A stretch of 64,000 nt of DNA from Deltaproteobacteria bacterium (GCA_016875395.1 VGRF01000002.1:207815-271814), one strand, 5' to 3'. Numbered from the stretch's first letter, positions 6,903 through 63,660 are shown. The notes: a model not told the origin generated them from the sequence alone. Translations and numbers: made by a program.

Positions 6903-7939
6903 TTCGGCGTCGTACTCGCGGCTGGCGTCGGGTCCGCCCAGTGCACGACGACGGGAATGCGCGCCGGCAACTGCCTGTCTGGCCGCGCCTCCACGAACTC
7001 GCGGAACTCGTCGAGCTGCAATCCCGGCGGCTCGCTCCAGAACGACGCGCGCTGGGTCGTCCAGAGCAGCTCGGGCCCGAAGCCGGCCAGGTGTGCGGCG
7101 CGGAGCTCCGCTCCGGACCCGGTCTCGGACGGCTCGCACAGTCCTTGCGTCTTCGCGTCGTCTGCGAGCTTCGCGAGGATGGCGTCGCGAATTCGCGCCT
7201 CGCGCTCGAAGGTCGAGAGCCACTCGCCGCGCTCCAGTGCGCGCTGGATCTCGAGTGCGTAGAGGAGGGCGAGCGCGAGCTCACAGGGGCCGCCGCGCTC
7301 CGGGTCGTGCTCGATCGAGACCGCGAGATCGCGCTCCGGGCGCTGCACCACCAGCGCGAGCTCCGCGAGGAACTCGCGGCGCGCGGTGTCGATCGCGGCG
7401 TCGACCTCGGCGCTGGGAACGCCGAGACGCGTGGCGCGCATCTTCACGAAGTCGGTACCGAGCAGCGTCAGGAACGCGCGCGTCTGCAGAGGCTCGCCGC
7501 TCGGATGCGTGCCCTGATAACTCGCCTGGATGCCGTCCACCTCGCCCCACTTCGTCGACGCGCGCGACACCTCCTCGAGCTCGAGAGCGATCTTCCACTC
7601 GTTCTGCCCCGCGGCGTACTCGACCTCGCGCTTGGTCTGCTCGTACTGCGCCCAGAGCGCGTCCGCGACCGAGACCTGGCGGGGCAAGTTGAGTGCGGAG
7701 AACACGTAGAAGTCGAGGCGCAGCGCGGGGTCCTCACCCGCGTAGCTCGCGCCGAAGCCGGCCTCCGCTTCCGCAATGTCCGAGCGCCGGGCGAGATCGA
7801 AGGAGCCGACGCGAGCGGGCAGCGCGTACTCGGCGCTCGAGGTGCGCACCGCCGGGGCGCGCTGCGCTGAGGGCGCCGCGAGCGGCGAAGCGCACGCGAG
7901 CGCGAGGCAGAGCGGGATCAGGGCGACGAGTCGAGGCAC
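6899..7939 (-). CDS. lipoprotein of unknown function
   Basis: GTG at 7939 gives VPRLVALIPLCLALAC with a lipobox. 346 aa; no family recognised. Lies in the operon between the GT2 and membrane GT genes. Confidence 0.6.
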   Translation of the reverse strand: MPRLVALIPLCLALACASPLAAPSAQRAPAVRTSSAEYALPARVGSFDLARRSDIAEAEAGFGASYAGEDPALRLDFYVFSALNLPRQVSVADALWAQYEQTKREVEYAAGQNEWKIALELEEVSRASTKWGEVDGIQASYQGTHPSGEPLQTRAFLTLLGTDFVKMRATRLGVPSAEVDAAIDTARREFLAELALVVQRPERDLAVSIEHDPERGGPCELALALLYALEIQRALERGEWLSTFEREARIRDAILAKLADDAKTQGLCEPSETGSGAELRAAHLAGFGPELLWTTQRASFWSEPPGLQLDEFREFVEARPDRQLPARIPVVVHWADPTPAASTTPK

Positions 7940-7980
7940 GCGCGCATTCTGCCACGCGCGCGCGGCGGCGGAGCGCGCGT

Positions 7981-8700
7981 TCAGCCTGCCTTCAGGCGCG
8001 TGAAGCGATGCGCGACGATCGCGCTGACCGCTCGCAGCGCGTCGCTCGCGCGGATTTTCTTGCCCTCGCGGTAGCTGCGCGCGCGGTAGCGGATCGGCAC
8101 TTCGTAGAAGCGAGCGCCGGTGCGATGCAGCTTGGCGGTGAGCTCGGCCTCGATCGTGAACGTGGCGGCCGTGAGGTGCAGCGGCTTCACGAGCTCGGCG
8201 CGCATCGCTTTGTAGCCGGTGTAGAGGTCGGTGAAGTTGGTGTTGTAGACGACGTTCGCGGTGAGCGTGATCAGCTTGTTCGCGAGCGTGGTCCAGAAGT
8301 AGTTGACGCTGTGCTCGGCGCCGAGGAAGCGCGAGCCGTAGACGGCGTCGGCGACGCCGGCCTCGATCGGCCCTAACAAGCTCGGGATGTCGCGGGGCGA
8401 GTACTCGAGGTCGGCGTCTTGGATCACGAGCACGTCGCCGCTCGCGAGCGCGAATCCGGTGCGCACCGCCGAGCCCTTGCCGCGCGGGCGCTCGTGACGC
8501 GCGCAGCGAACGCGCGAGTCCGCGGCGGCGAGCTCCGCGATCACGCGCGGCGTCGCGTCGCTCGAGCCGTCGTCCACGATCACGACCTCGAGGTCGTACG
8601 CAGAGAGCGCCTCGCGCACCGCGTCCACCACGGCGCGCAGCGTGCGCTCCTCGTTCAGCGCTGGAATCACTACCGAGACGCGCAGCGGGCGGGACGTCAT
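7981..8700 (-). CDS. family 2 glycosyltransferase (polyprenol-phosphate sugar synthase-like)
   Basis: 239 aa; VSVVIPALNEE, VIVDDGSSD and VIQDADLEY motifs typical of DPM1/ArnC-like GT2 enzymes. Confidence 0.85.
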   Translation of the reverse strand: MTSRPLRVSVVIPALNEERTLRAVVDAVREALSAYDLEVVIVDDGSSDATPRVIAELAAADSRVRCARHERPRGKGSAVRTGFALASGDVLVIQDADLEYSPRDIPSLLGPIEAGVADAVYGSRFLGAEHSVNYFWTTLANKLITLTANVVYNTNFTDLYTGYKAMRAELVKPLHLTAATFTIEAELTAKLHRTGARFYEVPIRYRARSYREGKKIRASDALRAVSAIVAHRFTRLKAG

Positions 8701-8761
8701 GCGCCGCGAGAGTTAGCAGGACGCGAGACACGACAGGACGCGAGCGGGCGAAAGCGGACAG

Positions 8762-8796
8762 ATCGCGGAGCCAGCGTCAGACGCAAAATCCGCGAT
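8762..8796 (-). repeat. hairpin element with GCGTCAGACGC loop palindrome (family B, copy 3)
   Basis: Stem ATCGCGGA (8762-8769) pairs with TCCGCGAT (8789-8796). The loop holds CCAGCGTCAGACGC. Same architecture as the elements at 36281-36364 and 55420-55454. Lies 60-100 nt upstream of the GT2 start. Confidence 0.5.
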
Positions 8797-8821
8797 TCCG
8801 CCGCGCGACGACGTCCCGCCC

Positions 8822-10984
8822 TCACTCCGGCAGCGCGAAGGCGACGTAGCGGTCGCCGCTCGGGCGGCCGAGCTTGCTGCCTCCTGCGGCGATCACGACG
8901 AATTGGCGGCCGGCGGCCTCGTAGACCGCGGGCGTTGCGAAGCCGGCCGCGGGCAGATCGGCTTCGTAGAGCAGGGCGCCACTCGCCTTGTCGAACGCGC
9001 GCAGCTTCGCGTCGGGCGTGCCCGCGATGAACACGAGCCCGCCCGCGGTGACGACGGGCCCGCCGTAGGTCTCGGCGCCGAGGCCGCGCATGCCGCGCGC
9101 GAGCGCCTCGGGGTAGTCGCCGAGCGGCACCTGCCACGCGATCTCGCCGCGCGCGAGGTCGATCGCGCTGAGCGTGCCCCACGGCGGCGCGATCGCGGGG
9201 AAGCCGTCGGGATCGAGGAACTTTCGGTACCCGGCGAGCATGTAGCGCGGGAACATCGCGCCGCTGGGCACGTCGCTGGCGGGCGTTTCCTCGATCCGCG
9301 CGGGACCGAGCGGCTCGAACAGGTACCAGAGCAGCGCCGCCATCTCGGCGTTCCCTAACAACGGAAGCGCCGGCATGCGCCCGCGTCCTTCCTGCACGAT
9401 GCGCCGCACCTCGAGCGCACCCAGGCGCTCGCCCAGATCAGTCAGGGCCGGCACGCCGCCGCCCCCCTCGCGCTGAAGGCCGTGGCAGCCCGCGCACAGC
9501 GAGAGGTACGCCGCGCGGCCGCCGCTCCCGAGACCCGCGACGCGCGGTGCTCGCGCCATCTGGATCACGTAGGGAACTTCCTGCGAGTTCACGTACAGCA
9601 GGGAAGTCTCGGGATCCCAGGCGAGCCCGCCCCATTCCGCACCGCCATCCATGCCGGGCAGCAGCGCAATGCCCGCTTCGCTTGGCGCAGCGAACGGCTC
9701 GCTGCTGGAGAAGGCACGGAGCTGCGCGAGCACGGCGGCGTGCGCCTCGGGCGTGCGCTGAGTGAGGTCGCTCTCGCGCACGTGCTGGCGCGCGAACGGC
9801 GGCGGGCGCTCGGGCAGCGGCTGCGTCGCCGCGAGCTGCTCGCCTTCGAGCGCGCTCGCGGGCGCGGGCACTTCGCGAATCGGGAACAGCGGCGTGCCGC
9901 TCTCGCGCTCGAACACGAACACGTGGCCGCTCTTCGTCGCCTGCGCCACGGCGTCGATGCGCCTGCCGTCGCGCTCGAGCGCGATCAGGTTCGGCGGCGC
10001 GGGCAGGTCGCGGTCCCACACGTCGTGGCGCACGACTTGGTAGTGCCAGCGCCGCTCTCCGGTCGCTGCGTCGAGCGCGACGAGCGAGCTCGCGAAGAGG
10101 TTGTAGCCGCGCCGATCGCCGCCGTAGAAGTCGTAGGTCGCGGAGCCGGTCGGCACGAACGCGATGCCGCGGGCTGCGTCGACGCGAATTCCCGCCCACG
10201 AGTTGGCGCCGCCGGCCGTGCGCCACGCCTCGGCGGGCCACGTCTCGTGTCCCGCTTCGCCGGGCTGCGGGATCGTGTGGAACGTCCAGCGCAGCGCGCC
10301 GGTCTTCGCGTCGAACGCGCGTACGTGGCCGGGCGAGGCGTCACCGAGCTCGGAGACTCGCCCGCCGATCAGGACGAGATCGCGGTAGATCGCGGGCGGC
10401 GTCGTCGCCGCGACCCACTGCGCATCGGCGTCGCGCCCGAGCCCTTCGCGCAGATCGACGCGGCCCGCGTCCCCGAAGCTCTCGATCGGCTCGCCGGTGC
10501 GCGCGTTCAGCGCCCACAGCGCAGCGCCTGCGCCGAAGAACACGCGCTCGTCCTCGCCGTCGGCCCAGAACGTGAGGCCGCGGCTCGGCGCGAGGCCGGG
10601 CCGCTCGCTTGCCGCGGGATCGAAGCTCCACAGCTCCGCGCCGGTCGCGGCATCGAGCGCGAACGCGCGCAGCGAAGGCGAGACGCCGTAGAGCACGCCG
10701 TTCACCACGAGCGGGTTGGTCTGGATCTGCGCGCACTGCGAGACGCCGCCGGCCGCGTACTCCCAGGCCACGCGCAGCTCGCGCACGTTCGTGCGATCGA
10801 TCTGCGCGAGCGGCGAGTGCTGTCCGTCGTTCAGGTACGTGCGCCACTCGTGCGAAGCCTCGGCGCTCTTCGCGCGCGCGCCCTCGAACGCGGCGGCGCC
10901 CGTGCTGCGATGCGACGCGGCGCCGCCGCAGGCGAGCGCGAGGGCTGCGAGAGCCGTGGGAGGCACGAAACGCAAGCGGCGCAC
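8822..10984 (-). CDS. PQQ-dependent dehydrogenase (beta-propeller) with embedded cytochrome c domain
   Basis: 720 aa; signal peptide MRRLRFVPPTALAALALAC; quinoprotein propeller repeats; CAGCHG heme-c motif about two thirds along. Confidence 0.8.
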   Translation of the reverse strand: MRRLRFVPPTALAALALACGGAASHRSTGAAAFEGARAKSAEASHEWRTYLNDGQHSPLAQIDRTNVRELRVAWEYAAGGVSQCAQIQTNPLVVNGVLYGVSPSLRAFALDAATGAELWSFDPAASERPGLAPSRGLTFWADGEDERVFFGAGAALWALNARTGEPIESFGDAGRVDLREGLGRDADAQWVAATTPPAIYRDLVLIGGRVSELGDASPGHVRAFDAKTGALRWTFHTIPQPGEAGHETWPAEAWRTAGGANSWAGIRVDAARGIAFVPTGSATYDFYGGDRRGYNLFASSLVALDAATGERRWHYQVVRHDVWDRDLPAPPNLIALERDGRRIDAVAQATKSGHVFVFERESGTPLFPIREVPAPASALEGEQLAATQPLPERPPPFARQHVRESDLTQRTPEAHAAVLAQLRAFSSSEPFAAPSEAGIALLPGMDGGAEWGGLAWDPETSLLYVNSQEVPYVIQMARAPRVAGLGSGGRAAYLSLCAGCHGLQREGGGGVPALTDLGERLGALEVRRIVQEGRGRMPALPLLGNAEMAALLWYLFEPLGPARIEETPASDVPSGAMFPRYMLAGYRKFLDPDGFPAIAPPWGTLSAIDLARGEIAWQVPLGDYPEALARGMRGLGAETYGGPVVTAGGLVFIAGTPDAKLRAFDKASGALLYEADLPAAGFATPAVYEAAGRQFVVIAAGGSKLGRPSGDRYVAFALPE

Positions 10985-11038
10985 GCCGCGACACTAATTC
11001 GTGTCGGAGGACGTGCGCCGCTCCGAAGTGCAGATCCG

Positions 11039-11440
11039 TCAGCCGCGGAAGAGCCAGCCCCAGTCGACTGCGATCACCACGTTCGGCACGAAGTGCGACG
11101 GAATGCCGTGGTACTTGCGCAGGTGGCGGTGGAACTTGTCTCTACTCCCCCAGCGCTTGCCGCACGGGCGGCAGCCGTAGCCGTAGTCGTGGTCGTGACG
11201 GCTGTAGTAGTCGCGGCCGTAATAACCGCGGTCGTGGCCCCAGCCACCTCGCCAATGACGGCGTCCCCGGTCCCAGTCGTGGTCGCAATGTCGACCGTGC
11301 TCGTGCACGGGGTAGCCGCGGCGGTAGCGGTAGTCGTCGTCGTCCCAGTCATCGTGGCCCGCCAGGGCAGGCGCGGCGAGCGAGACCGAGAGCAGCGCCG
11401 CGGCTGCCGCAGCGCGAAGTCGCGTGATCTGGAAACGCAT
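11039..11440 (-). CDS. secreted His/Asp/Arg/Tyr-rich protein with a C2H2 zinc-finger-like motif
   Basis: ATG at 11440 preceded by AGGAGG. Signal peptide MRFQITRLRAAAAAALLSVSLAAPALA. Mature part is HD/RG/Y rich and contains YGCRPCGKRWGSRDKFHRHLRKYH. Confidence 0.6.
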   Translation of the reverse strand: MRFQITRLRAAAAAALLSVSLAAPALAGHDDWDDDDYRYRRGYPVHEHGRHCDHDWDRGRRHWRGGWGHDRGYYGRDYYSRHDHDYGYGCRPCGKRWGSRDKFHRHLRKYHGIPSHFVPNVVIAVDWGWLFRG

Positions 11441-11538
11441 CCTGAGAACCTCCTGCGCACTGCGACGCCGCGACCCCGCGCTCGATTCATGGCGGGAGCT
11501 CGAGGTCGCGTGCGTCGATGTGACGATGCGCACACCCC

Positions 11539-13229: not shown

Positions 13230-13252
13230 TCCTCCCGTCGCCGGGCGCGCGT

Positions 13253-13645: not shown

Positions 13646-13692
13646 GCGATCACCCTAGCAGCGATCACCGGCGTCTCCAGCCGAGCGGTTGT

Positions 13693-15480: not shown

Positions 15481-15493
15481 CGACCGAGCGTAC

Positions 15494-22132: not shown

Positions 22133-23290
22133 ATGCGCGCCCTCGCCACGCTCCTCCCGCTCTGCGTGCTCGTGGGCGCTCCCGCGGCGGCGCAAACCGA
22201 CATCGCAGCGACGCCTCCGGTCACCGTGACCTCGACCAACTGGGACGAGGTCGAGCTGCTCGGCAAGCGCGTTCGGCCCGGCGACAAGCGGCGCCTCTTC
22301 CTGAGCTCGAGCGAGTCGTTCGCCGGTTCCGACACCGAGCTGCCGGTCCTGGTGACGCGCGGCGCGACGCCGGGGCCCACGGTGTGCCTGATCGCCGGCA
22401 TTCACGGCGACGAGCTGAACGGCATCGAGATCGTGCGCAAGGTGGTGGAAGGCCTAACACCTCGGCGCATCTCGGGCATGGTGATCGCGGTGCCGGTGGC
22501 GAACCTGCACGGCTTCCGCCGCTCCTCGCGCTACTTGCCCGATCGCCGCGATCTGAACCGCTTCTTTCCCGGCACCGCTTCCGGCAGCGCGGCCTCGCGC
22601 ATCGCGTGGTCGCTCTGGAACGACGTCGTGCGCCACTGCAGCTCGCTGATCGACCTCCATACCGGCTCGTTTCACCGCACGAACCTTCCGCAGGTGCGCA
22701 CCGACACGACGGACGAGCGCTCGCTCGCACTCGCGAAGGGCTTCGGTGGCGCTCTCATCGTGCACGACCCGGGGCAGGATGGAACGCTGCGCCGCGCGGC
22801 GCGGCGAGCGGGCATCGGCGCGATCACGTACGAGGCCGGTGAGCCGCTGCGCTTCCAGGAGCGCGAGATCGCGCGGGGCGTCGAGGGCGTGCGCAACATC
22901 CTCGCCACGCTGGGCATGAGCGACGCCGCGCCGCTGAAGTACGCGCCGCGCGTCTACCAGCGAGCGCGCTGGGTGCGCGTCGACGACGGCGGGATCTTCT
23001 TCACGCGCAGGCGCCTCGGCGAGCAGGTGCAGCCGGGTGATCTGTTAGGCACCGTCACCGACCCCGTGACGAACGAGACGAAATCCGTCGAGTCGCCGCT
23101 GCGCGGTCGCATCATCGGCATGGCCGTTCCACAGGTCGTGATCCCCGGGTACGCCGCGTTCCACCTCGGGATCGACGCGGCGGCGACTGCCGCGGAGGAG
23201 CCCGCGCTGCCTGCGCCGAGCGAGGATGCGGATGCGATGGCCGAGCAAGAGGCTGGGCGCGAGATGGATCCGGAGGCGGCGCCGGAATGA
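22133..23290 (+). CDS. secreted succinylglutamate desuccinylase/aspartoacylase-family (M14-like) zinc peptidase
   Basis: Signal peptide MRALATLLPLCVLVGAPAAAQ; zinc motif CLIAGIHGDELNG. Confidence 0.8.
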   Translation: MRALATLLPLCVLVGAPAAAQTDIAATPPVTVTSTNWDEVELLGKRVRPGDKRRLFLSSSESFAGSDTELPVLVTRGATPGPTVCLIAGIHGDELNGIEIVRKVVEGLTPRRISGMVIAVPVANLHGFRRSSRYLPDRRDLNRFFPGTASGSAASRIAWSLWNDVVRHCSSLIDLHTGSFHRTNLPQVRTDTTDERSLALAKGFGGALIVHDPGQDGTLRRAARRAGIGAITYEAGEPLRFQEREIARGVEGVRNILATLGMSDAAPLKYAPRVYQRARWVRVDDGGIFFTRRRLGEQVQPGDLLGTVTDPVTNETKSVESPLRGRIIGMAVPQVVIPGYAAFHLGIDAAATAAEEPALPAPSEDADAMAEQEAGREMDPEAAPE

Positions 23291-24891
23291 GCCGTTCCTC
23301 GCTCATCGTCGGCGCGCTGCTCGCCCTGCTCGGGCTCGCGGTCTTCGGCGTGAAGCACTTCCGCTACGGAATTCCGCTGCGCGTCGCCGAGGGCGTGGGC
23401 CCGTGGCAGGTGGAGCTGCGCGTGAACGTGCGCGGCGCGAACACGCGCGGCAGCGTGCGCGCGCTGCTGCCGAACAGCGAAGCCGGGCAGACCCTCTTCG
23501 ACGAGAAGCCCACGAACGACCGGCTCGAGTTCACGACGCGCGACGAAGCGACCGGCAACCGCATCGGCGTCTGGTCGGGCGTGATCGGACCGATCCACGA
23601 GGTCGTGTACGCGCTTCACGTGCAGATGAGCGCCGTCGAGGCGCCGCTGCCCGAGGGCCGCAGCTTCCCGGCGCCGCCGCGCGGGGTCGCGGCGCTGTAT
23701 CTCGCTCCCGCAGCACAGCTGCCGATCGATGCGCCAGAGATCGTCGCGCGGCTCGAGCAGCTCAAGCTGCCGTCTTCGCAGGATCTGCCGGCGCGCATTC
23801 GCATGATTTATCAGGCCGTCGCGAACGAGGTCGCGACGATCGAGCGAGGCCCCGAGGATCCGCTGCTCGTGCTCGCGAACCGCGAAGGCAGCGAAGCGGG
23901 CAAGGAGCTGCTGCTCGTGACGCTGATGCGCGCCGCGGGCGTGCCGGCGCGCGTCGTGCACGGGCTCGAGCTGCGCGCCGACGCGACGCCGCGCGAGCGC
24001 ACGTGGAGCGAGGTGTGGATCGCGGACAAGTGGGTGCCGATGCACGCGAGCGCGCTCGAGGGCAGCCCCGAGGGCTTTTTCGCGCGGCGGCCTGAGAACT
24101 TCCTCGTGCTCGGCCGCGGCCTCGTGCCCAACGTCGAGGCGACTTCGGTCACGAACATCGGCCATCGCTACCGCTCGCTGCGCGAGCACCTGCGCGCGGA
24201 CGAGGTCGCGAATCTGCTCACCCCGGACAACCCGGTGTTCGAGTTCCTCTCCTTCTATCGCTTGCCGCTTCCCACGCAGGCCGCGCTGCGTGTGCTGCTG
24301 CTGATCCCCCTCGGTGCGGTGGTGATCGCGCTCTTCCGCAACGTCGTCGGCGTGCGCACGTACGGCACGTTCATGCCGATTCTCATCTCGCTCGCGCTGC
24401 GCGAGTACTCGCTGTGGCGCAGCCTGGCGCTGGTCGTCGGCGTGATTCTGTTCGCGATCGTGCTTCGGCGCGCGCTCGAGTCCCTGCGCCTGCTGATGGT
24501 GCCGCGCCTCTCGATCATGCTCTGCACCGTGGTGCTCTTGGTGGCCGGCTTCGCGCTCGTCGGCGAAGACGCCGAGACCTCGGCCCTGTTCGCCGGCGTG
24601 CTCTTCCCGATGGTGATCCTCACCATGCTCACGGAGCGCATCTTCATCACCGCCGCGGAGGAGGGCGTGCGCGAGGCGACGGTGCGCGCGGGCATTTCGA
24701 CCGCGGTGGCGGCGACGATCCATCCGCTCTTTCAAAGCGCGCGCGCCGAGTACCTGATGTTCACCTTCCCCGAGCTCACGTTCTGCGCGATGGGCGTGCT
24801 GATCTGGATCGGCGGCTACACCGGCTATCGCATCGCCGACTTGCTGCGCTTCCGCTCGCTCGCGCATGACCCGAACGCCGAGGCCGCGTGA
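23287..24891 (+). CDS. inactive transglutaminase-like domain fused to a 7-TM region
   Basis: ATGA overlap with the upstream gene. TGase-core-like LLLVTLMRAAGVPARVVHG..WSEVWIADKWVPM lacks the catalytic Cys and His. The C-terminal half has about seven hydrophobic helices. Confidence 0.75.
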   Translation: MSRSSLIVGALLALLGLAVFGVKHFRYGIPLRVAEGVGPWQVELRVNVRGANTRGSVRALLPNSEAGQTLFDEKPTNDRLEFTTRDEATGNRIGVWSGVIGPIHEVVYALHVQMSAVEAPLPEGRSFPAPPRGVAALYLAPAAQLPIDAPEIVARLEQLKLPSSQDLPARIRMIYQAVANEVATIERGPEDPLLVLANREGSEAGKELLLVTLMRAAGVPARVVHGLELRADATPRERTWSEVWIADKWVPMHASALEGSPEGFFARRPENFLVLGRGLVPNVEATSVTNIGHRYRSLREHLRADEVANLLTPDNPVFEFLSFYRLPLPTQAALRVLLLIPLGAVVIALFRNVVGVRTYGTFMPILISLALREYSLWRSLALVVGVILFAIVLRRALESLRLLMVPRLSIMLCTVVLLVAGFALVGEDAETSALFAGVLFPMVILTMLTERIFITAAEEGVREATVRAGISTAVAATIHPLFQSARAEYLMFTFPELTFCAMGVLIWIGGYTGYRIADLLRFRSLAHDPNAEAA

Positions 24892-38654: not shown

Positions 38655-39800
<1,146 letters not shown>

Positions 39801-39826: not shown

Positions 39827-40942
39827 TCAGTTTTTCGGTGCGACCTGCGCGAGGCGCTCGAGGTCGTCGCTCGTGAAGCTCTCGAGCAGCGCGACGAGGT
39901 CCGTCTTTTCGTCCGCCGTCAGCGCCAAGGGACGCATGCCGCCGTCGAGGTACGGGTTCGCGTTGCCGCCGCGGTCGTAGTAGTCGATCACGCTCGCGAG
40001 CGTCGCCTCGCTGCCGCCGTGCATGTACGGCGCCGTCTTCGCGACGTTGCGCAGCTGCGGCGTCTTGAAGGCCCCGAGGTGCCGCTCTTCGCGCGTCACG
40101 AGGAAGCGCCCGAGCTCGCCCATTTCCTCGCTGCCGAGCGCGAGGTCGTCGATCGAGGCGCCCGCAGCGCCAGCCGCGGCGGCTTTGCGCGATGCGACCG
40201 CGAAGTCCACGCGCGTCACGCCCACGCCGATGTTGTGGAAGTCGTCGTCAGTGAAGAGCGGGATCGCTTCGACGTAGCCGTGACACGTGCTGCAGCGCGC
40301 CTTGCCGTTGAACAGCTCCCAGCCGCGTTGCGCCTCGGCGGAGATCGCGCTCGCATCGCCGCGCAGAAAGCGATCGATCGGCGCGTTCACCTCGATCAGC
40401 GTGCGCTCGAAGCTCGCGATCGCCTGCCCCACGCGTTCGATCGTGATCTCGCGCGAGCCGAACGCCGCCTCTAAGGGAGCGCCGTAGTCGCTCAGCGTGC
40501 TCAGCTTCGCGACGACGGCCGGATGATCCGCGAAGCCGTGCTCGATCGCGTTGATCAGCGGCAGCACCGCCTGCGCCTCGAGATTCGCGGCGCGGCCGTC
40601 CCAGAACTGCGTCGCGAGGAACGCGGCGTTCAGCACGGTGGGCGCGTTCTTCGAGCCGACCGCGCCGCCGACGCCGGCCGAGCCCTTCGTGCCGCGCCCG
40701 TCTGCGAACGCGTGCTTCGGATCGTGACAGGTCGCGCACGCGACCGTGCCGTCGGTCGAGAGGCGCGTGTCGAAGTAGAGCTTCTGGCCGAGCGCGATTT
40801 TCTCCGCGCTGAGCGCGTTGTCTGCGGGGATCTCGGGCGGGAACACGCCGGCCGGAAGCGCGGGCAACAGTGCGTCGTTCGCGCCGAGCGCGAGCAGCGC
40901 GAGCGCCGCTGCCGAGATCGCCGTGAATGCGCGCCGCTTCAT
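39827..40942 (-). CDS. di-heme cytochrome c peroxidase / MauG family
   Basis: 371 aa; signal peptide; two heme motifs CATCHD and CSTCHG. Confidence 0.85.
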   Translation of the reverse strand: MKRRAFTAISAAALALLALGANDALLPALPAGVFPPEIPADNALSAEKIALGQKLYFDTRLSTDGTVACATCHDPKHAFADGRGTKGSAGVGGAVGSKNAPTVLNAAFLATQFWDGRAANLEAQAVLPLINAIEHGFADHPAVVAKLSTLSDYGAPLEAAFGSREITIERVGQAIASFERTLIEVNAPIDRFLRGDASAISAEAQRGWELFNGKARCSTCHGYVEAIPLFTDDDFHNIGVGVTRVDFAVASRKAAAAGAAGASIDDLALGSEEMGELGRFLVTREERHLGAFKTPQLRNVAKTAPYMHGGSEATLASVIDYYDRGGNANPYLDGGMRPLALTADEKTDLVALLESFTSDDLERLAQVAPKN

Positions 40943-41006
40943 CGCGAGCCTCCGACTCGGCGCGACTCTCGGCTAGATAACAACGACTGGCAACAAGAAA
41001 TCGGCT

Positions 41007-41444
41007 TCAGACCGAGTTTTCGCAGCGGGCGCAGCGCCCCAGCACCACGACCGAGATGCGCTCGAGCGCGAAGCCTTCGGGCAGGTTCGCCTTGGCGCGG
41101 ATCGCGGAGTCCGCGCTGCTCGGGAGATCGTGCAGCGCGCCGCACACGCGGCAGCGCGCGTGATAGTGCGGCGCGCTGTTCGCCTCGTAGCGGTAGGGCT
41201 CGCCGCCGTCGGTCACGCACGCGGCGAGCCCCGCGCCGACGAGCGAGCCCAGCACTTCGTACACGGTCTTCAAGCTGAGGCTCGGCTGCTTGCGCGCGAG
41301 CGCGCGATGCAAGCTCGCGGCGGTGGGGTGAGCATTCGATGCGCGCAGCGCCTCCAGCACGCCGACGCGCTGGCGCGTTGCGCGCAGACCGTGCGCCGCG
41401 AGCTCGATCGCGATCTGCTTGTGGTTGGGGTTCGCGCGCGCCAT
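41007..41444 (-). CDS. Fur family transcriptional regulator (PerR-like by context)
   Basis: Start at MARANPNHK (41444). Pattern RATRQRVGVLEAL..HPTAASL..CRVCG..CARC. Directly upstream of the peroxidase operon. Confidence 0.8.
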   Translation of the reverse strand: MARANPNHKQIAIELAAHGLRATRQRVGVLEALRASNAHPTAASLHRALARKQPSLSLKTVYEVLGSLVGAGLAACVTDGGEPYRYEANSAPHYHARCRVCGALHDLPSSADSAIRAKANLPEGFALERISVVVLGRCARCENSV

Positions 41445-41520
41445 GCGCGAAATCGTTATCCGATCGAGGGAAACTCTGCCGCGCCTCGACGTCCAGCCAC
41501 TTCGCGAGGATCGTCGCGGG

Positions 41521-42498
41521 ATGCCGCAGCCCTGCGTCGCCGAGCCGATCACGCAGCCGCGCTCGCCCGACGCCGAGCGCTTCGATCCCGCGGTGTGGAA
41601 GGCGCGCTGGGTGCCCGAGCGCGAGCTCGCGTGGGGCGCGTTTCTGCGCGATGCGCGCGAGCGACTGGGAGCTCGCGCGGCGGACCTCGAGCGCGCGCTG
41701 GAGCACGGCGGGATGCACGTGTCGGGGCGGCCGATCGATCCGAGCGCGCCACCCGGGACGATTCCGGCAGGCTGTTGGGTCGCGATCTACGGCTTCGTGC
41801 GCGAGCCGGAGCCCGTCGCGTTCGACGCGGCGCGCATCCTGCTCGACGCGGACGGCCTCGTCGCCGTCGACAAGCCGCCGTGGCTCTCGATGCAGCGCAC
41901 GCGCGCGAGCTTTCGCGCCTCGCTCGAGGATCAGCTGCAAGCGTTGTTAGGGGATCGCACGCTGTTCGCGGTGCATCGCCTCGACCGCCAGACGAGCGGC
42001 GTCGCCCTGTTCGCGCGCGGGCGCGAGCGCACCGCGGAGCTCGGGCGCGCCTTCCGCGACCGCCGCGTCGAGAAGCGCTACGTGGCGTGCGTATCCCCGC
42101 CGCCGCACGAGGACGAGCTCGCGGTGCGCGGATTCCTCGGTCGCGTGCCCCATCCGTCGCGCTTCAAGTTCGGCCTGTTCGCCGAGCCTGCAGAGGGCCG
42201 GCGCGAGAGCGCGACACACTTTCGTGTCACGCGGCGCTGCGCGCGCGGCGCGCTCGTCACCGCCGCGCCCGAGACCGGGCGCACGCACCAGCTACGCGTG
42301 CACCTCGCCGCGCACGGCTGCCCGATTGCGGGCGATGACCTCTACGGCCTCGCATGGGCGCCCGGCGCATCCCACGCCGCGGCGCGCGTCCTCTTGCACG
42401 CGAAGTCGCTCGCGCTCTCGCTCGCGGGGCGCAGCCTCGTCGTGGACGCGCCGACACCGCCCGACATTCGCGAGTTTGCGCTGGAAGGTGCTGGCTGA
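41521..42498 (+). CDS. RluA family pseudouridine synthase
   Basis: AVHRLDRQTSGVALFA and TGRTHQLRVHLA motifs. ATG at 41521 chosen because earlier ATGs overlap the divergent fur start. Confidence 0.8.
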   Translation: MPQPCVAEPITQPRSPDAERFDPAVWKARWVPERELAWGAFLRDARERLGARAADLERALEHGGMHVSGRPIDPSAPPGTIPAGCWVAIYGFVREPEPVAFDAARILLDADGLVAVDKPPWLSMQRTRASFRASLEDQLQALLGDRTLFAVHRLDRQTSGVALFARGRERTAELGRAFRDRRVEKRYVACVSPPPHEDELAVRGFLGRVPHPSRFKFGLFAEPAEGRRESATHFRVTRRCARGALVTAAPETGRTHQLRVHLAAHGCPIAGDDLYGLAWAPGASHAAARVLLHAKSLALSLAGRSLVVDAPTPPDIREFALEGAG

Positions 42499-42568: not shown

Positions 42569-43510
42569 ATGAACGACTCGAGCCTCGACTCCGACGAACG
42601 CGCCGCCGCGAGCTACCCCGGCGCGCGCCTGCCCGACCGCCGCCGCACCGTGAAGTCGTTCGGCGTCGACTTGTGCGTCTCCGAGTGGGGCGACGAGCGC
42701 GCGCCCGTGATTTTCTGCTCGCACGGCGGCTTCGACTTCACCGGCACCTTCGACGTGTTCGCACCGCTGCTCGCCGCGGGCGGCTACCGCGTCGTCGTGT
42801 GGGATCAGCGCGGCCACGGCGACTCGGGCCATGCGCCGCTCTACTCGTGGGACGCCGACGTGCGCGATCTGCTCACGGCGCTCGATTCGACGACGCGCGA
42901 GCCCGCGATCTTGTTGGGGCACTCGAAGGGCGGATCGATCTCGACGTACGCGATCCAAGCCGCACCGCACCGCGTGCGCGCCTTCGTGAACATCGACGGC
43001 ATGCCCTCGCACCGGCCGCCGCCCGACGTCGCCGATCACGAGCGCACGAAGCTGCTCGCGACCGAGTTATCAGGCTGGCTCGACCACCGCCGCGCGGCCG
43101 GCGACAAGGTGCGCCGCGCCGACACGCTCGGCGGCCTCGCCGAGCGCCGCGCGCGCCAGAACCCGCGCCTCTCGAAGGCGTGGCTCCGCTACCTCGTGAC
43201 GCGCGGCGCGCGCAAGGACGCCGACGGCTGGCGCTGGAAGATCGATCCCGTGCTGCGCCCCGGCGGCTTCGGGCCGTGGCGCGCGACGTGGTCGATGGCG
43301 CGCCTCGCGAGCCTGCCCGTGCCGCTGCTCGGCCTGCTCGCGACCGAGAGCGAGCCGATGGGCTGGGAGACGCGCGCCAGCGAGGTGAAGCCGTACCTGC
43401 CGCGCCGCGCCGAAGTGGTGGAGATGAAGGGCGTTGGCCACTTCATCCACATCGAGCAACCCGAGCGGACCGCGAAGCTCGTGCTCGACTTCTTGCGGAA
43501 CCTCGCGTGA
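42569..43510 (+). CDS. alpha/beta hydrolase
   Basis: 313 aa; RGHGDS and the GHSKGG elbow. Confidence 0.8.
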   Translation: MNDSSLDSDERAAASYPGARLPDRRRTVKSFGVDLCVSEWGDERAPVIFCSHGGFDFTGTFDVFAPLLAAGGYRVVVWDQRGHGDSGHAPLYSWDADVRDLLTALDSTTREPAILLGHSKGGSISTYAIQAAPHRVRAFVNIDGMPSHRPPPDVADHERTKLLATELSGWLDHRRAAGDKVRRADTLGGLAERRARQNPRLSKAWLRYLVTRGARKDADGWRWKIDPVLRPGGFGPWRATWSMARLASLPVPLLGLLATESEPMGWETRASEVKPYLPRRAEVVEMKGVGHFIHIEQPERTAKLVLDFLRNLA

Positions 43511-44160
43511 AGACGATTCGCCTGAAGCACGCGCGCATCGAGCTCGCGCTGCACGAGCTACGCGCAGGCGACGGACGCGCGCTGTTGCTCCTGCACGGCC
43601 TCGGCGAACGCTCGCCGCGCGAAGTCCCAGCCTACGCCGCAGCCTGGTCTGGTCCCGTGTTCGCGGTCGACTTCACGGGCCACGGCGAGAGCTCGCTCAC
43701 GAGCGGCGGCGGCTACAGCGCCGAAGTGCTGATGGGCGACGCCGACTGCGCGTTGCGCCATCTCGGCCGAGCGACGTTGTTAGGGCGCGGCCTTGGCGCC
43801 TACATCGCGCTGCTGATCGCCGGCGCGCGCCCCACGCTCGTGCGCGGCGCCATCCTGTGCGACGGCCTCGGCCTCGCCGGCGGCGGCGCCGAAGCCGCCA
43901 CGCCGAGCCTCGTCTACCCGAACCCGCACGCCGTCGCGTCGCCCGACCCGTTCGCGCTGGTCGAGCTCGCCCGCGACGTGCGCCCGCCGGATTACGCCAC
44001 TGCCTTCTGGCGCCAAGCGAACGAGTTATCAGGGCTCGAGCGCCCCATCGCGGTGTGCTGCGCCGAGCGTCCGGATTGGCTCGAAGCGGTGCTGAAGGAA
44101 TCCGAGCTGCGCGTGACGACGGTCGAGGATGCGGTCGCGGAGTACGCGCGGGTGGCCTGA
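43507..44160 (+). CDS. alpha/beta-hydrolase-like protein lacking the nucleophile serine
   Basis: GTG at 43507 in a GTGA overlap. LLLHGLGE and FTGHGES are present, but the elbow reads GRGLGA (Gly where Ser is expected). Confidence 0.6.
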   Translation: MKTIRLKHARIELALHELRAGDGRALLLLHGLGERSPREVPAYAAAWSGPVFAVDFTGHGESSLTSGGGYSAEVLMGDADCALRHLGRATLLGRGLGAYIALLIAGARPTLVRGAILCDGLGLAGGGAEAATPSLVYPNPHAVASPDPFALVELARDVRPPDYATAFWRQANELSGLERPIAVCCAERPDWLEAVLKESELRVTTVEDAVAEYARVA

Positions 44161-57056: not shown

Positions 57057-57121
57057 CGCGGTTCTCCGGCACGAGGCGCGATCTTCGCACGCATCCAGCT
57101 TGCGCGAAGTACGATGCGCGC

Positions 57122-59178: not shown

Positions 59179-59185
59179 AACCGAG

Positions 59186-59410: not shown

Positions 59411-59412
59411 GG

Positions 59413-59655
59413 CTACGAGACGACGACTTGGTGAGTGCCGACGAACTCCGACTCGAGAACGGGTTCGCCGTCCTCCAGCAGAAGCTCGACGACCTCGCGC
59501 AGGTTCTGCGCGAGCTCCTCCATGGTGGCGCCCTGCGAGTGAGCGCCGGGGAATCCCGGGATGTGGCCCACGAAGAGGCCCGTTTCGAGATCCTTCTCGA
59601 TGACGGCGGTGAACTTTCTCACCTGATGAACTCCGCGGGACCGGGGTTCGGACAC
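59413..59655 (-). CDS. hicB: HicB family antitoxin
   Basis: 80 aa; KFTAVIEKDLETGLFVGHIPGFPGAHSQGATMEEL pattern. 2 nt upstream of hicA. Confidence 0.75.
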   Translation of the reverse strand: MSEPRSRGVHQVRKFTAVIEKDLETGLFVGHIPGFPGAHSQGATMEELAQNLREVVELLLEDGEPVLESEFVGTHQVVVS

Positions 59656-59692
59656 GCTACTCCCGACATCCGCAATTGGCGACGGCGTCGAA

Positions 59693-60934
59693 TCACCTCT
59701 CCAGCGGCACCTCCGGAGCCACCGCCCACCACATCAGCCCCGACACGAAGTAGAGCGCGGCGACGCTCGCGAGTGGGATGTTCCAGCTGCCGAAGTGCTC
59801 GAGGCAGTAGCCGAACACGACCGGGCTCGTGGCGCCGCCGAGGTTGCCGAACATGTTCATCGCGCCGCTGACGACGCCGCCGTGGCGGCCGCCGATCGCG
59901 AGGCAGGTCGACCATGCGGACGCGATGCCGAGCGCGGCGAAGCCCGCGGCGGCCGTCAGGAACGCGGTCGCAACGCGTGCGCTCGGGGTCTCGATCGCGC
60001 CGAGAATCATCAGCGCGGCGATGGGCAAGCCGACGATCCCCGGCGCGCGCAGGCCGAAGCGGAGCCCGCGGCGGCGCACGAGCGCGTCGGAGACGAGGCC
60101 GCCGAAGAAGCAGCCTGCGGCGATCGCGAGCCACGGCAGCGCCGCGAGCCAGCTCGTCTGCGCGAGGCTGAAGCCGCGCGCCTTCTCGAGGTACTGCGGC
60201 AGCCACGTCATGAAGAAGTACCAGCCGTAGATCGCGCAGAAGTACATCGCGCAGATCACGATCAGGTTGCGGCTGCGCGCGAAGCGCCCCCACGGCACGC
60301 CCGTGTGCGGCTCCTGCGCGGGCGGTCCGATCTCCGCGACCTCGGCTGCGCTGACGTCGCGGTGCTCGCGCGGGTCGTCGCGCATCCACGCGTACCACGC
60401 GAGCGCCCACACGCCGCCTAACAAGCCGAACGCGACGAAGGACTCGCGCCAGGTGAAGCGCCCGAGCATCGCGCCCACGATCGGCTGCGCGATCGCGCTG
60501 CCGAGCGCGCCCGCCGCGACCGTGAGCCCGAACGCGCTCCCGCGCTCGCGCTCGGGCAGCCAGCGCCGGAACGCGCTCGCGAGGGTCGGCAACACGCCAG
60601 CCTCGCCCATCCCGAACAAGAAGCGGATGCCGATCAGCGAGAAGAACCCTCGCGCCGCTGCGGTGGCTGCGGTCCACGCGGACCACCACAGCACGATGCG
60701 CGTCATCATGCGGCGCGAGCCGAAGCGATCCGCGAGCCAGCCGCTCGGCACCTCGAACAGCGCGTAGGCGAGCGTGAACGCGCTGAACGCGTAGCCCATC
60801 TGCGTGGGAGTCAGCGAGAGATCGCGCTGGATCGCCGAGCTCGACAGCGAGATCGCGACGCGGTCGATGTAGGCGAGCGCCATCGTGCCGAGCGCGAAGG
60901 CGAGCATCGTGTAGCGGGTGCGCCAGAAGAGCAT
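59693..60934 (-). CDS. MFS transporter
   Basis: 413 aa, 12 predicted TM helices, GWLADRFGSRR loop motif. Confidence 0.85.
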   Translation of the reverse strand: MLFWRTRYTMLAFALGTMALAYIDRVAISLSSSAIQRDLSLTPTQMGYAFSAFTLAYALFEVPSGWLADRFGSRRMMTRIVLWWSAWTAATAAARGFFSLIGIRFLFGMGEAGVLPTLASAFRRWLPERERGSAFGLTVAAGALGSAIAQPIVGAMLGRFTWRESFVAFGLLGGVWALAWYAWMRDDPREHRDVSAAEVAEIGPPAQEPHTGVPWGRFARSRNLIVICAMYFCAIYGWYFFMTWLPQYLEKARGFSLAQTSWLAALPWLAIAAGCFFGGLVSDALVRRRGLRFGLRAPGIVGLPIAALMILGAIETPSARVATAFLTAAAGFAALGIASAWSTCLAIGGRHGGVVSGAMNMFGNLGGATSPVVFGYCLEHFGSWNIPLASVAALYFVSGLMWWAVAPEVPLER

Positions 60935-60976
60935 GGACGGCGCAGTCTCTCGCGGCGGGAGACGCGTCGCTACGGG

Positions 60977-61333
60977 TTATTGGGGCTTCGCGGTGTCGCA
61001 GCTCCCTCTTCGGAGCGCGCTCACCCGCACGAGGCTCACCGCGCGATCGGCGTCTCGTGCGGCGGGCCAATCAGAGGGGAGCGGCCCCTCGATCGCGGCG
61101 AAATCCAGGAGCAGCGGGCCTTCGTTCTCCGCAAGCCACTTTTCGATTTGCCAATCGAACGTGTAGTTGCTCGAACCCATGCCGATCTGCAACCGCGCAC
61201 CCGTCGAGCAGTCGAGCATCAGCCGGTCCGTGAACTCGCCCCAACGAATCACCTGCGCGGTCCCGCTCGTGCGCAGCGGGGTGACGCAGGCGGCTGCTGC
61301 GACGCAGGCGCTCGCGAGCAGCCACGCCCTCAC
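60977..61333 (-). CDS. lipoprotein of unknown function
   Basis: GTG at 61333 in a GTGA overlap. VRAWLLASACVAAAAC lipobox-like N-terminus. Confidence 0.5.
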   Translation of the reverse strand: MRAWLLASACVAAAACVTPLRTSGTAQVIRWGEFTDRLMLDCSTGARLQIGMGSSNYTFDWQIEKWLAENEGPLLLDFAAIEGPLPSDWPAARDADRAVSLVRVSALRRGSCDTAKPQ

Positions 61334-61554
61334 CCGCGCTCCCACACGAGCTGAAACTCGATCTCCTCCTGCTCGTCGCCGCGCTCGTGCTCGATGTTGA
61401 TCACGGCGTTCGCTGGGATCGCGACGCGCTCGCCGGCGACCTGGATGCGGAAGCGCCCGCCGCTCTCGATCGCGTCGGCGAGGCGCCGCAGCTTCGCGGC
61501 GAACTGCTTCGGCGGATAGTTCTTCTCGATGTCGCGCTTTCGCTTCGCTGCCAT
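61330..61554 (-). CDS. amphi-Trp domain-containing small protein
   Basis: 74 aa. AAKLRRLADAIESGGRFRIQVAGERV ... EIEFQLVWE resembles the amphi-Trp domain pattern (from memory). Confidence 0.55.
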   Translation of the reverse strand: MAAKRKRDIEKNYPPKQFAAKLRRLADAIESGGRFRIQVAGERVAIPANAVINIEHERGDEQEEIEFQLVWERG

Positions 61555-61562
61555 GGCGGCTC

Positions 61563-62033
61563 CTACTTCGCTGCTTTCCAGTGATCACTCATCAGCTCGC
61601 TCGCCCACGCGGGCTGGCGGACTTCCTCGCGCGGCAAGAACTCGCGCATCACCGGCTTGATGTCCACCACCGGCGTGCCCTCGACCGCGTCGAGCTCGCG
61701 CACGAACAACGTGCGGCCTTCGCGGCGCGCGACGCGGCAGATCGTCGAGCCGAGTCGGTTCACGCGGTTCTTCGCGCGCTGCGCGAGGATGCCCGTCACC
61801 GGCCAGGCCGTGTTGTTCCGCGGATGCCGCGCGCCGCGCACGATCTTCGCGTCCGGAACGCGATCGAACACGAACAGCACTTCGACATGGGAGAACTGCT
61901 CGATGCCGTCGAGCGCGCTCTCCTCCACGGCGTCCGTGAGCACGAGGCGCGACACCGCGCCGCCCCAGTAGTCATCCTCGACGTCACTGCGCGCATCACG
62001 TACGAACGCGATCGGCGTGAGCTCGAGCTTCAC
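61563..62033 (-). CDS. TsaA/TrmO-like SAM-dependent tRNA methyltransferase
   Basis: 156 aa. FSHVEVLFVF, RSPHR-type RHPRNN, LFVRELDAVEGTPVVDIKP pattern. Confidence 0.75.
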   Translation of the reverse strand: MKLELTPIAFVRDARSDVEDDYWGGAVSRLVLTDAVEESALDGIEQFSHVEVLFVFDRVPDAKIVRGARHPRNNTAWPVTGILAQRAKNRVNRLGSTICRVARREGRTLFVRELDAVEGTPVVDIKPVMREFLPREEVRQPAWASELMSDHWKAAK

Positions 62034-62076
62034 GTGACCTCCTCGGGTGATGCGCCGACTCTCAGCGATGCGCTCG

Positions 62077-62517
62077 TTACCGCAATCTTCTCTGCCGGAT
62101 CAGTGTGAGCGCGGCGCGCGTGATCTGCGTCCGGAACGCGACGGCGATCGCGCTCGCGCACGAGCCTAGAACGAACGCAGCGTCCCAGGTGCTCGCCCGG
62201 AACCCACCGACAGCGAGCCCGGTTGAGTAAGCCACTAGCAACGCGAGGAGGGGCGCGGCACCGACGACCCTCAGCCAGAAAGGTCGCTCGATACACGTGA
62301 GGATCAGAAACGATCCGATCGCTGCCGCGGCTCCATTGGCCAGATCTTCAGAGGTTCCAGTCGAGAGGGGTGTCGTCCAGCCTCGGACAGCGATCACGAT
62401 CCATCTTCCGGCGAAGAACCCGACAAGCACCCGCAGCGGAATCCATCGCGCCACCTTCGATGGATCGCCGCCCTCATTCGAGAGCTCCGACTCCGGCGGG
62501 CGATAGCGCTCATCCAC
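62077..62517 (-). CDS. small membrane protein of unknown function
   Basis: GTG at 62517 abuts the upstream TAG. Three to four hydrophobic helices. Lower GC and rare codons (AGA AGA TTG ... TAA). Confidence 0.45.
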   Translation of the reverse strand: MDERYRPPESELSNEGGDPSKVARWIPLRVLVGFFAGRWIVIAVRGWTTPLSTGTSEDLANGAAAAIGSFLILTCIERPFWLRVVGAAPLLALLVAYSTGLAVGGFRASTWDAAFVLGSCASAIAVAFRTQITRAALTLIRQRRLR

Positions 62518-63275
62518 TACGCGAAGTACTTCGCAAACGCCGCGCGCAGGTCGCGCGGCCCTGCTTCGAGCGGCTCGCCGTGCGCGACGACGATGCGCGC
62601 GAAATCCCACGCGCACACGCGTTCGATCCACGCCTGCACGGCGGCGCGGTTGTAGAGCAGGAACCAGTGTGCGGTCTTCGTCGGGCCGAAGCGCCCGAGC
62701 GCGCCGTAGCCGCCCCACACCACGCGGTCGATCCAGCGCTCGACGTGGCGCACGTTGAACGAGCTGTCGACGAGCGCGAGCGTGCGCGAGGCGGCGTGGA
62801 AGAACGCGACCTCGGCGGTGCCGCGGCCGCCGGCGAGGACGCGATGCGCGAAGGTGCTCGCGAACGGCGTCGCGTCCTCGTCCACGAGCTCGCGGCCCGC
62901 AGGCACTGCGTCCCTGACGCGCGCGCGCAGGCCCGGTGCGAGCCACACCTCGGCGCTCGGGAACGCGCGCTGCCACTCGGCGAGGCCGAGGTAGTGGAAC
63001 GAGTTCGGCGCGACGAGAAAGCGCGCACCGCCGCGCGCCTCGACGAAGGCGCGCAATTCGGCGCCGAGCGGAACGGGCGCCCACGCGAGCACGCCGCCAC
63101 CCGGCAGGTCGACGAGCAGCGCGCGCGTCCCGAGCCGCGGACCCATGCCGATGCCGAGCATGCGATCCACGGACCACAGCCCCGGCGCGAGCTCGTGCGG
63201 CGCGGGCTCGCCGGGCAGCCACGTCGGCGAGCTGAGCGCGACGATGCGTTCGAGAAGGCTCCGCTCACTCGCCAC
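62517..63275 (-). CDS. DUF4336-like (MBL-related) protein
   Basis: 252 aa; FLVAPNSFHYLGLAEWQRAFPSAEVWLAPGL pattern recalled for DUF4336. Confidence 0.65.
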   Translation of the reverse strand: MASERSLLERIVALSSPTWLPGEPAPHELAPGLWSVDRMLGIGMGPRLGTRALLVDLPGGGVLAWAPVPLGAELRAFVEARGGARFLVAPNSFHYLGLAEWQRAFPSAEVWLAPGLRARVRDAVPAGRELVDEDATPFASTFAHRVLAGGRGTAEVAFFHAASRTLALVDSSFNVRHVERWIDRVVWGGYGALGRFGPTKTAHWFLLYNRAAVQAWIERVCAWDFARIVVAHGEPLEAGPRDLRAAFAKYFA

Positions 63276-63660
63276 GAGGCTCGAGCCGGTAGATGAAGCG
63301 CGTGGGATCGAAGCCCGCGAGCTCGCCGGGTCTTCCGGCCAGCACGGCCGTCGCGAGGTAGATCTTCTCGCCGAAGCGCACGCGCACGCGCGGGTCCTCG
63401 CGGATGTGATCGAGCCAGCGGCGCCCTTCCGCGGGGTCGATGTAGAGCGCGCCGTCTTTCACGACGTAGTTGAGCTCTACGGAGTATGGGTCGCTCGGGC
63501 GCGTCTCGAGGTCGACGAATTCGTCGGTCGCGAACGACCAGTCCGCGACGGGCTCGGTGACGACTTCGCCTGATAACTCGCCGCCTGGAAAGACGAGGAA
63601 GGGTCCGCCGCAGCCGAGCGCAGCGGCGAGAACGAACGAGCATGCGAACGAGCGTCTCAT
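63265..63660 (-). CDS. lipoprotein of unknown function
   Basis: 131 aa; MRRSFACSFVLAAALGC lipobox. Confidence 0.55.
   Translation of the reverse strand: MRRSFACSFVLAAALGCGGPFLVFPGGELSGEVVTEPVADWSFATDEFVDLETRPSDPYSVELNYVVKDGALYIDPAEGRRWLDHIREDPRVRVRFGEKIYLATAVLAGRPGELAGFDPTRFIYRLEPRGE

Follow-up and report, generated by a model that had tools for sequence, protein, structure and literature searches.

The question raised by this locus is why an AT-rich word should recur, letter for letter, in a GC-rich myxobacterial chromosome. The locus is a stretch of 64,000 nucleotides, hereafter the window (G000:C2:207815-271814), from a deltaproteobacterial genome (GCA_016875395.1) that we call G000 and whose assembly comprises 4.51 Mb in 96 contigs with 70% GC. 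The host belongs to one genus of uncultured, GC-rich freshwater Myxococcota (myxobacteria). The first-pass annotation of the window had reported a recurrent 9-mer, GTTATCAGG, and had related it to another recurrent word, TTGTTA. We find that the underlying word is the octamer TTATCAGG, which is present in all nine sampled genomes of the genus at 83-599 copies per genome and is very probably a real DNA-level word of a family with the skeleton TTRTYA(S)GG.

The conserved unit and its enrichment

The G000 assembly contains 265 copies of TTATCAGG, 145 of GTTATCAGG and 302 of the hexamer TTATCA, and 88% of these hexamers are directly followed by GG. Enrichment was measured against a codon-aware null, in which synonymous codons were shuffled within each of 2,716 open reading frames (ORFs) defined by periodicity of the GC content at third codon positions (GC3). 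On the sense strand of genes TTATCAGG occurs 176 times versus 5.1 +/- 1.9 expected (about 35-fold), and on the antisense strand 15 times versus 2.4 expected (about 6-fold). The first-pass annotation had proposed a genome-wide comparison of this kind and would have taken a lack of enrichment as refutation; the comparison reveals enrichment on both strands. When all 8-mers are ranked against the synonymous null, TTATCAGG is the top word outside the TTGTTA family. A ranking of k-mers against a maximal-order Markov model was uninformative, the signal being carried by sub-words.

The recurrence of the word stands; the unit initially assigned to it does not. Single-base changes at word positions 4-8 produce words with only 0-14 copies in G000, and what is conserved is TTATCAGG, softly flanked by S-R-S, rather than GTTATCAGG. 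The extended consensus is [G/C][A/G][G/C]-TTATCAGG, most commonly GAG-TTATCAGG. Outside positions -3 to +8 the flanks show codon periodicity only and nothing is conserved; the flank logo has no second conserved element within 20 nt, and neither TTATCAGG nor CCTGATAA is self-complementary. Chance or composition is ruled out by the dinucleotide and synonymous shuffles, and a dispersed repeat or mobile element by the unique flanks. In the papers of the library searched, the word turned up only in primer-type and chance matches and was nowhere treated as a motif.

Copies and host genes in the window

In the window GTTATCAGG is seen five times versus 0.04 expected from dinucleotide shuffles, none of which reached five. 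The exact copies lie where they had been reported, at 43066-43074 and 44025-44033 on the plus strand and at 7513-7521, 38669-38677 and 63569-63577 on the minus strand, and the 11-mer GAGTTATCAGG said to be common to four of them indeed occurs four times. The site at 23807-23815 had been described as a near copy. This is correct for the 9-mer but not for the core, as the complete 8-mer TTATCAGG is present there, so that the window holds six core copies:

7513..7523, minus strand: GAGTTATCAGG, GCG-AGT-TAT-CAG-GGC (A-S-Y-Q-G), in a long ORF (~6899-8731, minus strand) with no Pfam match
23805..23815, plus strand: GATTTATCAGG with the exact 8-mer core, ATG-ATT-TAT-CAG-GCC (M-I-Y-Q-A), in a 7TM-transglutaminase gene (23287-24891)
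38669..38678, minus strand: GGTTATCAGG, GGT-TAT-CAG-GGC, four codons ahead of the stop of a metallophosphoesterase gene (38655-39800)
43064..43074, plus strand: GAGTTATCAGG, GAG-TTA-TCA-GGC (E-L-S-G), in an alpha/beta hydrolase gene (42569-43510)
44023..44033, plus strand: GAGTTATCAGG, GAG-TTA-TCA-GGG (E-L-S-G), in the adjoining second alpha/beta hydrolase gene (~43507-44160)
63569..63579, minus strand: GAGTTATCAGG, GGC-GAG-TTA-TCA-GGC (G-E-L-S-G), in a 158-codon ORF (63268-63741, minus strand) with no Pfam match

The local GC3 phase bears out the reading frames claimed for the exact copies, namely GAG-TTA-TCA-GGN at 43066, 44025 and 63569 and NGT-TAT-CAG-GGC at 7513 and 38669; the same phase gives ATT-TAT-CAG-GCC for the copy at 23807. 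The earlier impression that the host genes are not paralogous was also right, save for the two hydrolases, which are distant paralogs with ELSG at non-homologous positions. These adjacent genes (42569-44160) are 31% identical over 71 residues and carry one GAG-TTA-TCA-GG copy each, and their ELSG tetrapeptides lie ~31 residues out of register with their only significant alignment. Paralogy as the source of the copies was therefore rejected: the hosts are unrelated, and in the hydrolase pair the words are out of register.

Recurrence at the DNA level

The word had been proposed to recur at the level of DNA rather than of peptide. This is upheld by its excess over the synonymous shuffle, by the use of several frames and by its presence on both strands of correctly called genes. 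The frames in use are T-TAT-CAG-G (137 copies), TTA-TCA-GG (38) and antisense CCT-GAT-AA (10); hardly any copies use the frames that require ATA or AGG, and in one antisense frame the word amounts to a double stop. Sense TTA-TCA-GG is occupied at 6.5% and antisense CCT-GAT-AA at 8%. The sense excess tracks the coding cost of the frames, not orientation. Host genes of antisense copies have normal GC1-GC2 statistics, which rules out that these copies lie in mis-called shadow ORFs.

The word encodes 45% of the x-Tyr-Gln-(G-starting codon) contexts of the G000 proteome. Overall, Tyr is encoded by TAT in 12% of cases, but in 32% where CAG and a base other than G come next and in 81% ahead of CAG-G; T stands at the preceding third position in 55% of TAT-CAG-G cases, and TAC-CAG-G is found 59 times versus 248 for TAT-CAG-G. 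In Leu-Ser-Gly contexts TCA is preceded by TTA or TTG in 66 of 78 cases. Because the use of TAT climbs with each matching neighbour base, the preference for the word is graded and cooperative. Independent GC-to-AT transitions in common codons were rejected as its origin: TTG-TTA, a triple derivative, is more frequent (606) than the double derivatives CTG-TTA (93) and TTG-CTA (17), and TCA occurs almost solely after TTA or TTG. An apparent avoidance of near-cognates (TTACCAGG, 0 observed versus 20 expected) was judged to be mostly an artefact of the shuffle null, with Tyr-Gln-Gly re-encoded by TAC. Unrelated to the words, Leu-Leu codon pairs of G000 are strongly biased (CTC-CTC 382 versus 3,048 expected, CTC-CTG 255 versus 1,887, CTG-CTC 4,273 versus 1,887), and a C-C codon junction is avoided.

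In non-periodic DNA TTATCAGG is found at 0.76x genome density, still more than 10-fold over the Markov expectation, and under a stricter definition of non-coding DNA at 0.4x. The word is somewhat rarer outside genes, yet not limited to them; a strict coding-only distribution is not robust, as it hinges on how non-coding DNA is defined. Intergenic copies of TTGTTA have no sense bias; TTGTTA is the only word with enough intergenic copies for this comparison, those of TTATCAGG being too few.

Distribution in the genus

The comparison set consisted of nine genomes of the genus (G000-G008) and 12 genomes of other genera in the same family and order. Copy numbers of TTATCAGG, of TTGTTASGG and of TTGTCAGG, a further member of the TTRTYA family, are as follows:

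G000: TTATCAGG 265, TTGTTASGG 821, TTGTCAGG 112
G001: TTATCAGG 83, TTGTTASGG 16, TTGTCAGG 16
G002: TTATCAGG 473, TTGTTASGG 346, TTGTCAGG 130
G003: TTATCAGG 407, TTGTTASGG 352, TTGTCAGG 76
G004: TTATCAGG 180, TTGTTASGG 148, TTGTCAGG 25
G005: TTATCAGG 599, TTGTTASGG 485, TTGTCAGG 128
G006: TTATCAGG 339, TTGTTASGG 388, TTGTCAGG 100
G007: TTATCAGG 292, TTGTTASGG 275, TTGTCAGG 61
G008: TTATCAGG 141, TTGTTASGG 91, TTGTCAGG 22

The 12 genomes outside the genus have 0-20 copies of TTATCAGG, not above the reversed-word control. What these counts add is that TTATCAGG is a word in its own right throughout the genus, that in most species it equals TTGTTA(C/G)GG in abundance, and that the proportions of the two shift between species. 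The ratio of TTATCAGG to TTGTTASGG is 0.9-1.6 in seven species, where the counts scale together, 0.32 in G000 and 5.2 in G001. Unlike TTGTTASGG, which is at background in G001, TTATCAGG persists in that genome. The main word of G001 (72.7% GC) is TTGTTGGG, with 20 copies versus 0.9 expected in a 400-kb sample; it is enriched in G000 too (107 sense copies versus 6.2) and may be G001's own variant of the TTGTTA word. In a tree built from 4.7 kb, G001 is sister to the word-richest pair, G002 and G005, so its poverty in words looks secondary.

Origin and persistence of copies

Members of the genus are ~80-88% identical in DNA, and orthologous sites were aligned across it. The two hydrolase sites of the window differ in history. 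At 43066 GAG-TTA-TCA-GGC is found in G000 only, and all eight relatives have GAG/GAA-CTN-TCN-GGN, three substitutions away, all of them synonymous; an example of such a route is GAG CTC TCG GGC to GAG TTA TCA GGC. The word at 44025 is common to five species (G000, G002, G005, G006 and G008) and missing in G001, G003 and G004. At 38669 it is also present in G007, and G006 has the GC-rich synonym GGC-TAC-CAG-GGC. Sites on other contigs are equally patchy, with intermediates CTATCAGG, TTACCAGG, TTGTCAGG and GTATCAGG. In-frame insertion scars were rejected, since the orthologous alignments show substitutions and no indels.

Opposite many G000 copies that encode Tyr-Gln, G001 has Tyr-Arg, Tyr-Ala or Tyr-Ser, which indicates that making the word there entailed the replacement of an amino acid. 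Near-matches turn exact one base at a time, at the expense of rare codons and sometimes of an amino acid.

Conservation was compared with that of control 8-mers, matched in frame and carrying A/T at the two third positions, in 269 kb of G000-G001 alignment; the samples are small. All five word sites of G001 are shared by G000 versus 13.6% of control 8-mers, and in the reverse direction 5 of 19 word sites of G000 are shared by G001 versus 8.5% of controls. Lineage-specific gains are found at different positions in every species. Together, the patchy gains and the above-control sharing indicate that copies arise anew in every lineage and last longer than comparable sequence.

Spacing

The density of TTATCAGG is one copy per 17 kb in G000 and one per 8 kb in G005; the whole family reaches ~1 per 2.3 kb. 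Spacing in G000 is Poisson-like (gap coefficient of variation, CV, 1.0; variance per 50 kb close to the mean), and copies are distributed about uniformly within ORFs with no placement relative to gene ends. Word-free islands that might mark foreign DNA were not found, and the longest gap, 14.7 kb, is close to the Poisson prediction. The densest cluster (G000:C6:34010-47859) has seven TTATCAGG copies in 14 kb, several of them common to G002 and G005.

Relation to the TTGTTA family

The first-pass annotation had derived a kinship of the two words from a shared GTTA core. The kinship is real and is seen in the 5' (G)AG flank and the 3' GG that TTATCAGG has in common with TTGTTACGG; the shared core is not, and is replaced by a shared skeleton. 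TTATCA and TTGTTA are two transitions apart, and the common skeleton is TTRTYA(S)GG. The flank (G)AG is preferred by TTATCAGG and TTGTTACGG and (C)GC by TTGTTAGG, and the extended consensuses GAGTTATCAGG and GAGTTGTTACGG both start with GAGT. GAG-TTGTTA-CGG is the chief family member in G000, with TTATCAGG the second most abundant; the two occur in the same genus, arise by point substitution and follow the same frame logic.

Each of the four TTRTYA combinations is enriched, though to very unequal degrees: in G000 TTGTCAGG reaches 112 copies (~5-fold) and the one-step intermediate TTATTAGG 14. This inequality argues that TTATCAGG is a discrete second peak and not decay debris. In the frame that holds 137 of the 176 sense copies, TTGTTAGG would give a stop codon (T-TGT-TAG-G), so part of the abundance of TTATCAGG reflects which family member a frame can hold. 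In a small sample, G000 copies of TTATCAGG are shared by relatives in 26% of aligned genome-site cells versus 9% for TTGTTA.

The question had also been raised whether the two words are halves or variants of one longer motif. The TTGTTA nearest to a TTATCAGG copy lies at a median distance of 934 bp, about as site density predicts, and the two words neither keep a preferred spacing nor co-localise; that they are half-sites of one composite motif was therefore rejected.

Other members and relatives of the family were seen alongside. TTGTTATC at window positions 40976-40983 (minus strand) is a TTGTTA-family copy in the non-coding divergent spacer between genes 39827-40972 (minus strand) and 41332-42498 (plus strand). 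Several minor AT-rich words of G000 are 10- to 40-fold over the synonymous null: TCATTAGG (30 versus 0.7), AGTGATTA (43 versus 2.8), ACTTATTA (31 versus 1.1) and TTATTACG (65 sense copies versus 4.7). All four match A[G/C]-T-N-R-T-Y-A.

Candidate reading and writing machinery

Genomes of the genus were searched for proteins that could read or write the word. The competence genes found are those for ComEC (PF03772), DprA (PF02481) and a ComEA-like HHH_3 protein (PF12836). Vsr (PF03852) had no match in the nine genomes. Four DNA-methyltransferase hits of G000 (three N6 and one C5) are above the Pfam cut-off, three of which were compared across the genus:

G000:C5:8512-10488: HsdM-like N6 methyltransferase (PF02384)
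G000:C21:797-1786: C5 methyltransferase (PF00145)
G000:C6:8430-8771: second, partial N6 methyltransferase (PF02384)

Within the assembled sequence of these metagenome-assembled genomes, none of the three is closely matched in the other eight, and they probably belong to restriction-modification systems specific to the strain. The survey covered the models PF02384 and PF00145; its fourth hit, a partial PF02384 match, lies on contig C44.

Possible mechanisms

We assign TTATCAGG to the class of hyper-abundant genome words, because it recurs at the DNA level, is clade-specific, arises by point mutation, is graded in preference, is conserved above control and lacks strand polarity. The mechanism that we favour, at a probability of roughly 35-40%, is a drive of the uptake or recombination type. 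A sequence-specific protein would recognise the word in double-stranded DNA, cells would favour kin DNA that carries it for uptake or recombination, and copies would build up through a molecular drive of the kind assumed for the DNA uptake sequences (DUS) and uptake signal sequences (USS). In such a scheme TTATCAGG and TTGTTA(C/G)GG could be co-existing 'dialects' whose proportions shift between species. The closest analogues, besides HIP1 (below), are the DUS of Neisseriaceae such as Neisseria and the USS of Pasteurellaceae such as Haemophilus. All are short asymmetric words with hundreds of copies, far above codon-aware expectation; they are even between chromosomal strands, lie within ordinary genes in the least costly frames, are clade-specific with related variants in species-dependent proportions, and originate by point mutation at orthologous sites that are partly shared. 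Like TTATCAGG within genes, uptake sequences show an orientation bias relative to the coding strand and reading frame (PMC2346458), and eight 'dialects' of DUS have been described in Neisseriaceae (PMC3630211). Unlike DUS and USS, TTATCAGG is AT-rich within a 70%-GC genome and belongs to another phylum.

Several observations weigh against an uptake-type drive. The competence genes listed above are near-universal in the control genomes too, and are therefore permissive and do not discriminate. ComP_DUS (PF16732), the DUS receptor of Neisseria, had no match in the nine genomes of the genus; a receptor of another kind may take its place. Close inverted pairs, which serve as terminators in the case of Neisseria DUS, are absent for TTATCAGG in G000, where no two copies lie nearer to each other than 156 bp. 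In contrast to Neisseria DUS, TTATCAGG is not enriched between genes (0.4-0.8x the genome average in non-coding-like DNA). Species with uptake sequences have one dominant word, whereas here two or more are similarly abundant, and at one copy per 8-50 kb across the genus TTATCAGG is much sparser than DUS or USS.

Two other explanations were weighed. The word could be written neutrally, by a repair or modification system that corrects near-cognate mismatches toward it and so creates copies continually without any usefulness. The closest precedent is the highly iterated palindrome HIP1 (GCGATCGC) of cyanobacteria, also an octamer, 15- to 300-fold over-represented (here ~35-fold), found in all reading frames (three for TTATCAGG) and conserved above controls. 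Whether HIP1 is due to selection (PMC5861425) or to methylation-linked biased repair (PMC4390886) is still debated; the model of Elhai invokes methylation-dependent mismatch repair (PMC4390886). HIP1 and the alternate highly iterated palindromes replace one another by lineage (PMC5861425, PMC4390886). A periodicity of 10-90 kb has been reported for HIP1. HIP1 differs in being palindromic, GC-rich and linked to conserved orphan methyltransferases, whereas TTATCAGG is asymmetric and AT-rich. Neutral writing fits the graded, cooperative preference, the absorption of synonymous alternatives (TAC-CAG-G 59 versus TAT-CAG-G 248; 66 of 78 TCA) and the gains at differing positions species by species. 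It is at odds with the lack of Vsr matches in the nine genomes and with methyltransferases that, for the three genes compared, are strain-specific rather than genus-wide. The repair would have to be biased toward A/T, opposite to known very-short-patch repair, and the conservation of word sites above matched controls, an argument that Xu et al. applied to HIP1 (PMC5861425), speaks against pure replenishment. Neutral writing is less probable than an uptake-type drive. Somewhat less likely again is that selection keeps the word, at a density that the cell needs, as a site bound by some abundant protein of the chromosome, with a part for example in nucleoid organisation, topology or recombination. 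The same above-control conservation, the presence of the word in all lineages of the genus and the amino-acid changes tolerated to create it speak for such a site. For HIP1, a part in nucleoid structure has been suggested (PMC5861425). Asymmetry would agree with sites read by a monomer, such as DnaA boxes. TATCAG matches the WATCAR half of the IHF consensus, but the logo has no downstream TTR element at IHF spacing. Against such a site, copies of TTATCAGG are randomly spaced (CV 1.0) without placement relative to gene ends. The 7-fold range of copy number in sister species, and the loss of nearly all TTGTTASGG in G001, would be odd for an essential structural site.

Two further explanations are unlikely. 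The rare codons TTA, TCA, TAT and NNT make up the word, and its sense excess in genes (176 versus 15) could suggest a signal in RNA or translation, either a rare-codon pair that slows the ribosome or a NusG-type T-rich pause element on the non-template strand; TTGTTA resembles the TTNTTT pause motif. Such a signal is very improbable, given that antisense copies are 6-fold enriched in correctly called genes, that three frames are used with an occupancy that follows coding cost (8% antisense, 6.5% sense) and that intergenic TTGTTA is free of sense bias (intergenic TTATCAGG copies being too few to tell). We conclude that the word is neither a peptide nor an RNA signal. The asymmetry of the 8-mer and a family density like that of Chi, of which Haemophilus influenzae has several variants, would recall a polar chromosome motif of the type of Chi or the FtsK-orienting polar sequences (KOPS), read one way relative to replication. 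This is the most improbable of the explanations considered. Both assembly strands carry similar numbers (129 forward, 136 reverse), the rate of sense copies in leading- versus lagging-strand genes has a ratio of 1.13, and the G-rich strand holds 63% of copies for 61% of gene length. Word orientation is explained by gene orientation alone and not by replication, which argues against a Chi- or KOPS-type motif.

Implications

More speculatively, and with the odds against it, Myxococcota might have a fast-evolving DNA-reading system, distinct from ComP, Vsr or a detectable conserved methyltransferase, that writes lineage-specific words, and in this genus two of its words, GAG-TTATCAGG and GAG-TTGTTA-CGG, might have been caught in the middle of a shift in specificity. 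G001 would then retain only the older word together with TTGTTGGG, G000 would have tripled the newer one, and the remaining seven species would stand near 1:1. If this were true, the genus would offer a natural experiment in which phyletic profiling could identify the reader.

The words distort analyses of codon usage and rare codons, as most TTA codons and 81% of the Tyr codons before CAG-G are due to them. Few hyper-abundant genome words are known (DUS, USS, HIP1), and how they originate is still debated; the present case is AT-rich and asymmetric, and comes from a third phylum. Two related words occur within one genome, their proportions differ over nine sister species, and sister genera are without both. 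This clean contrast with word-free sister genera makes the question of drive versus repair versus selection directly approachable.

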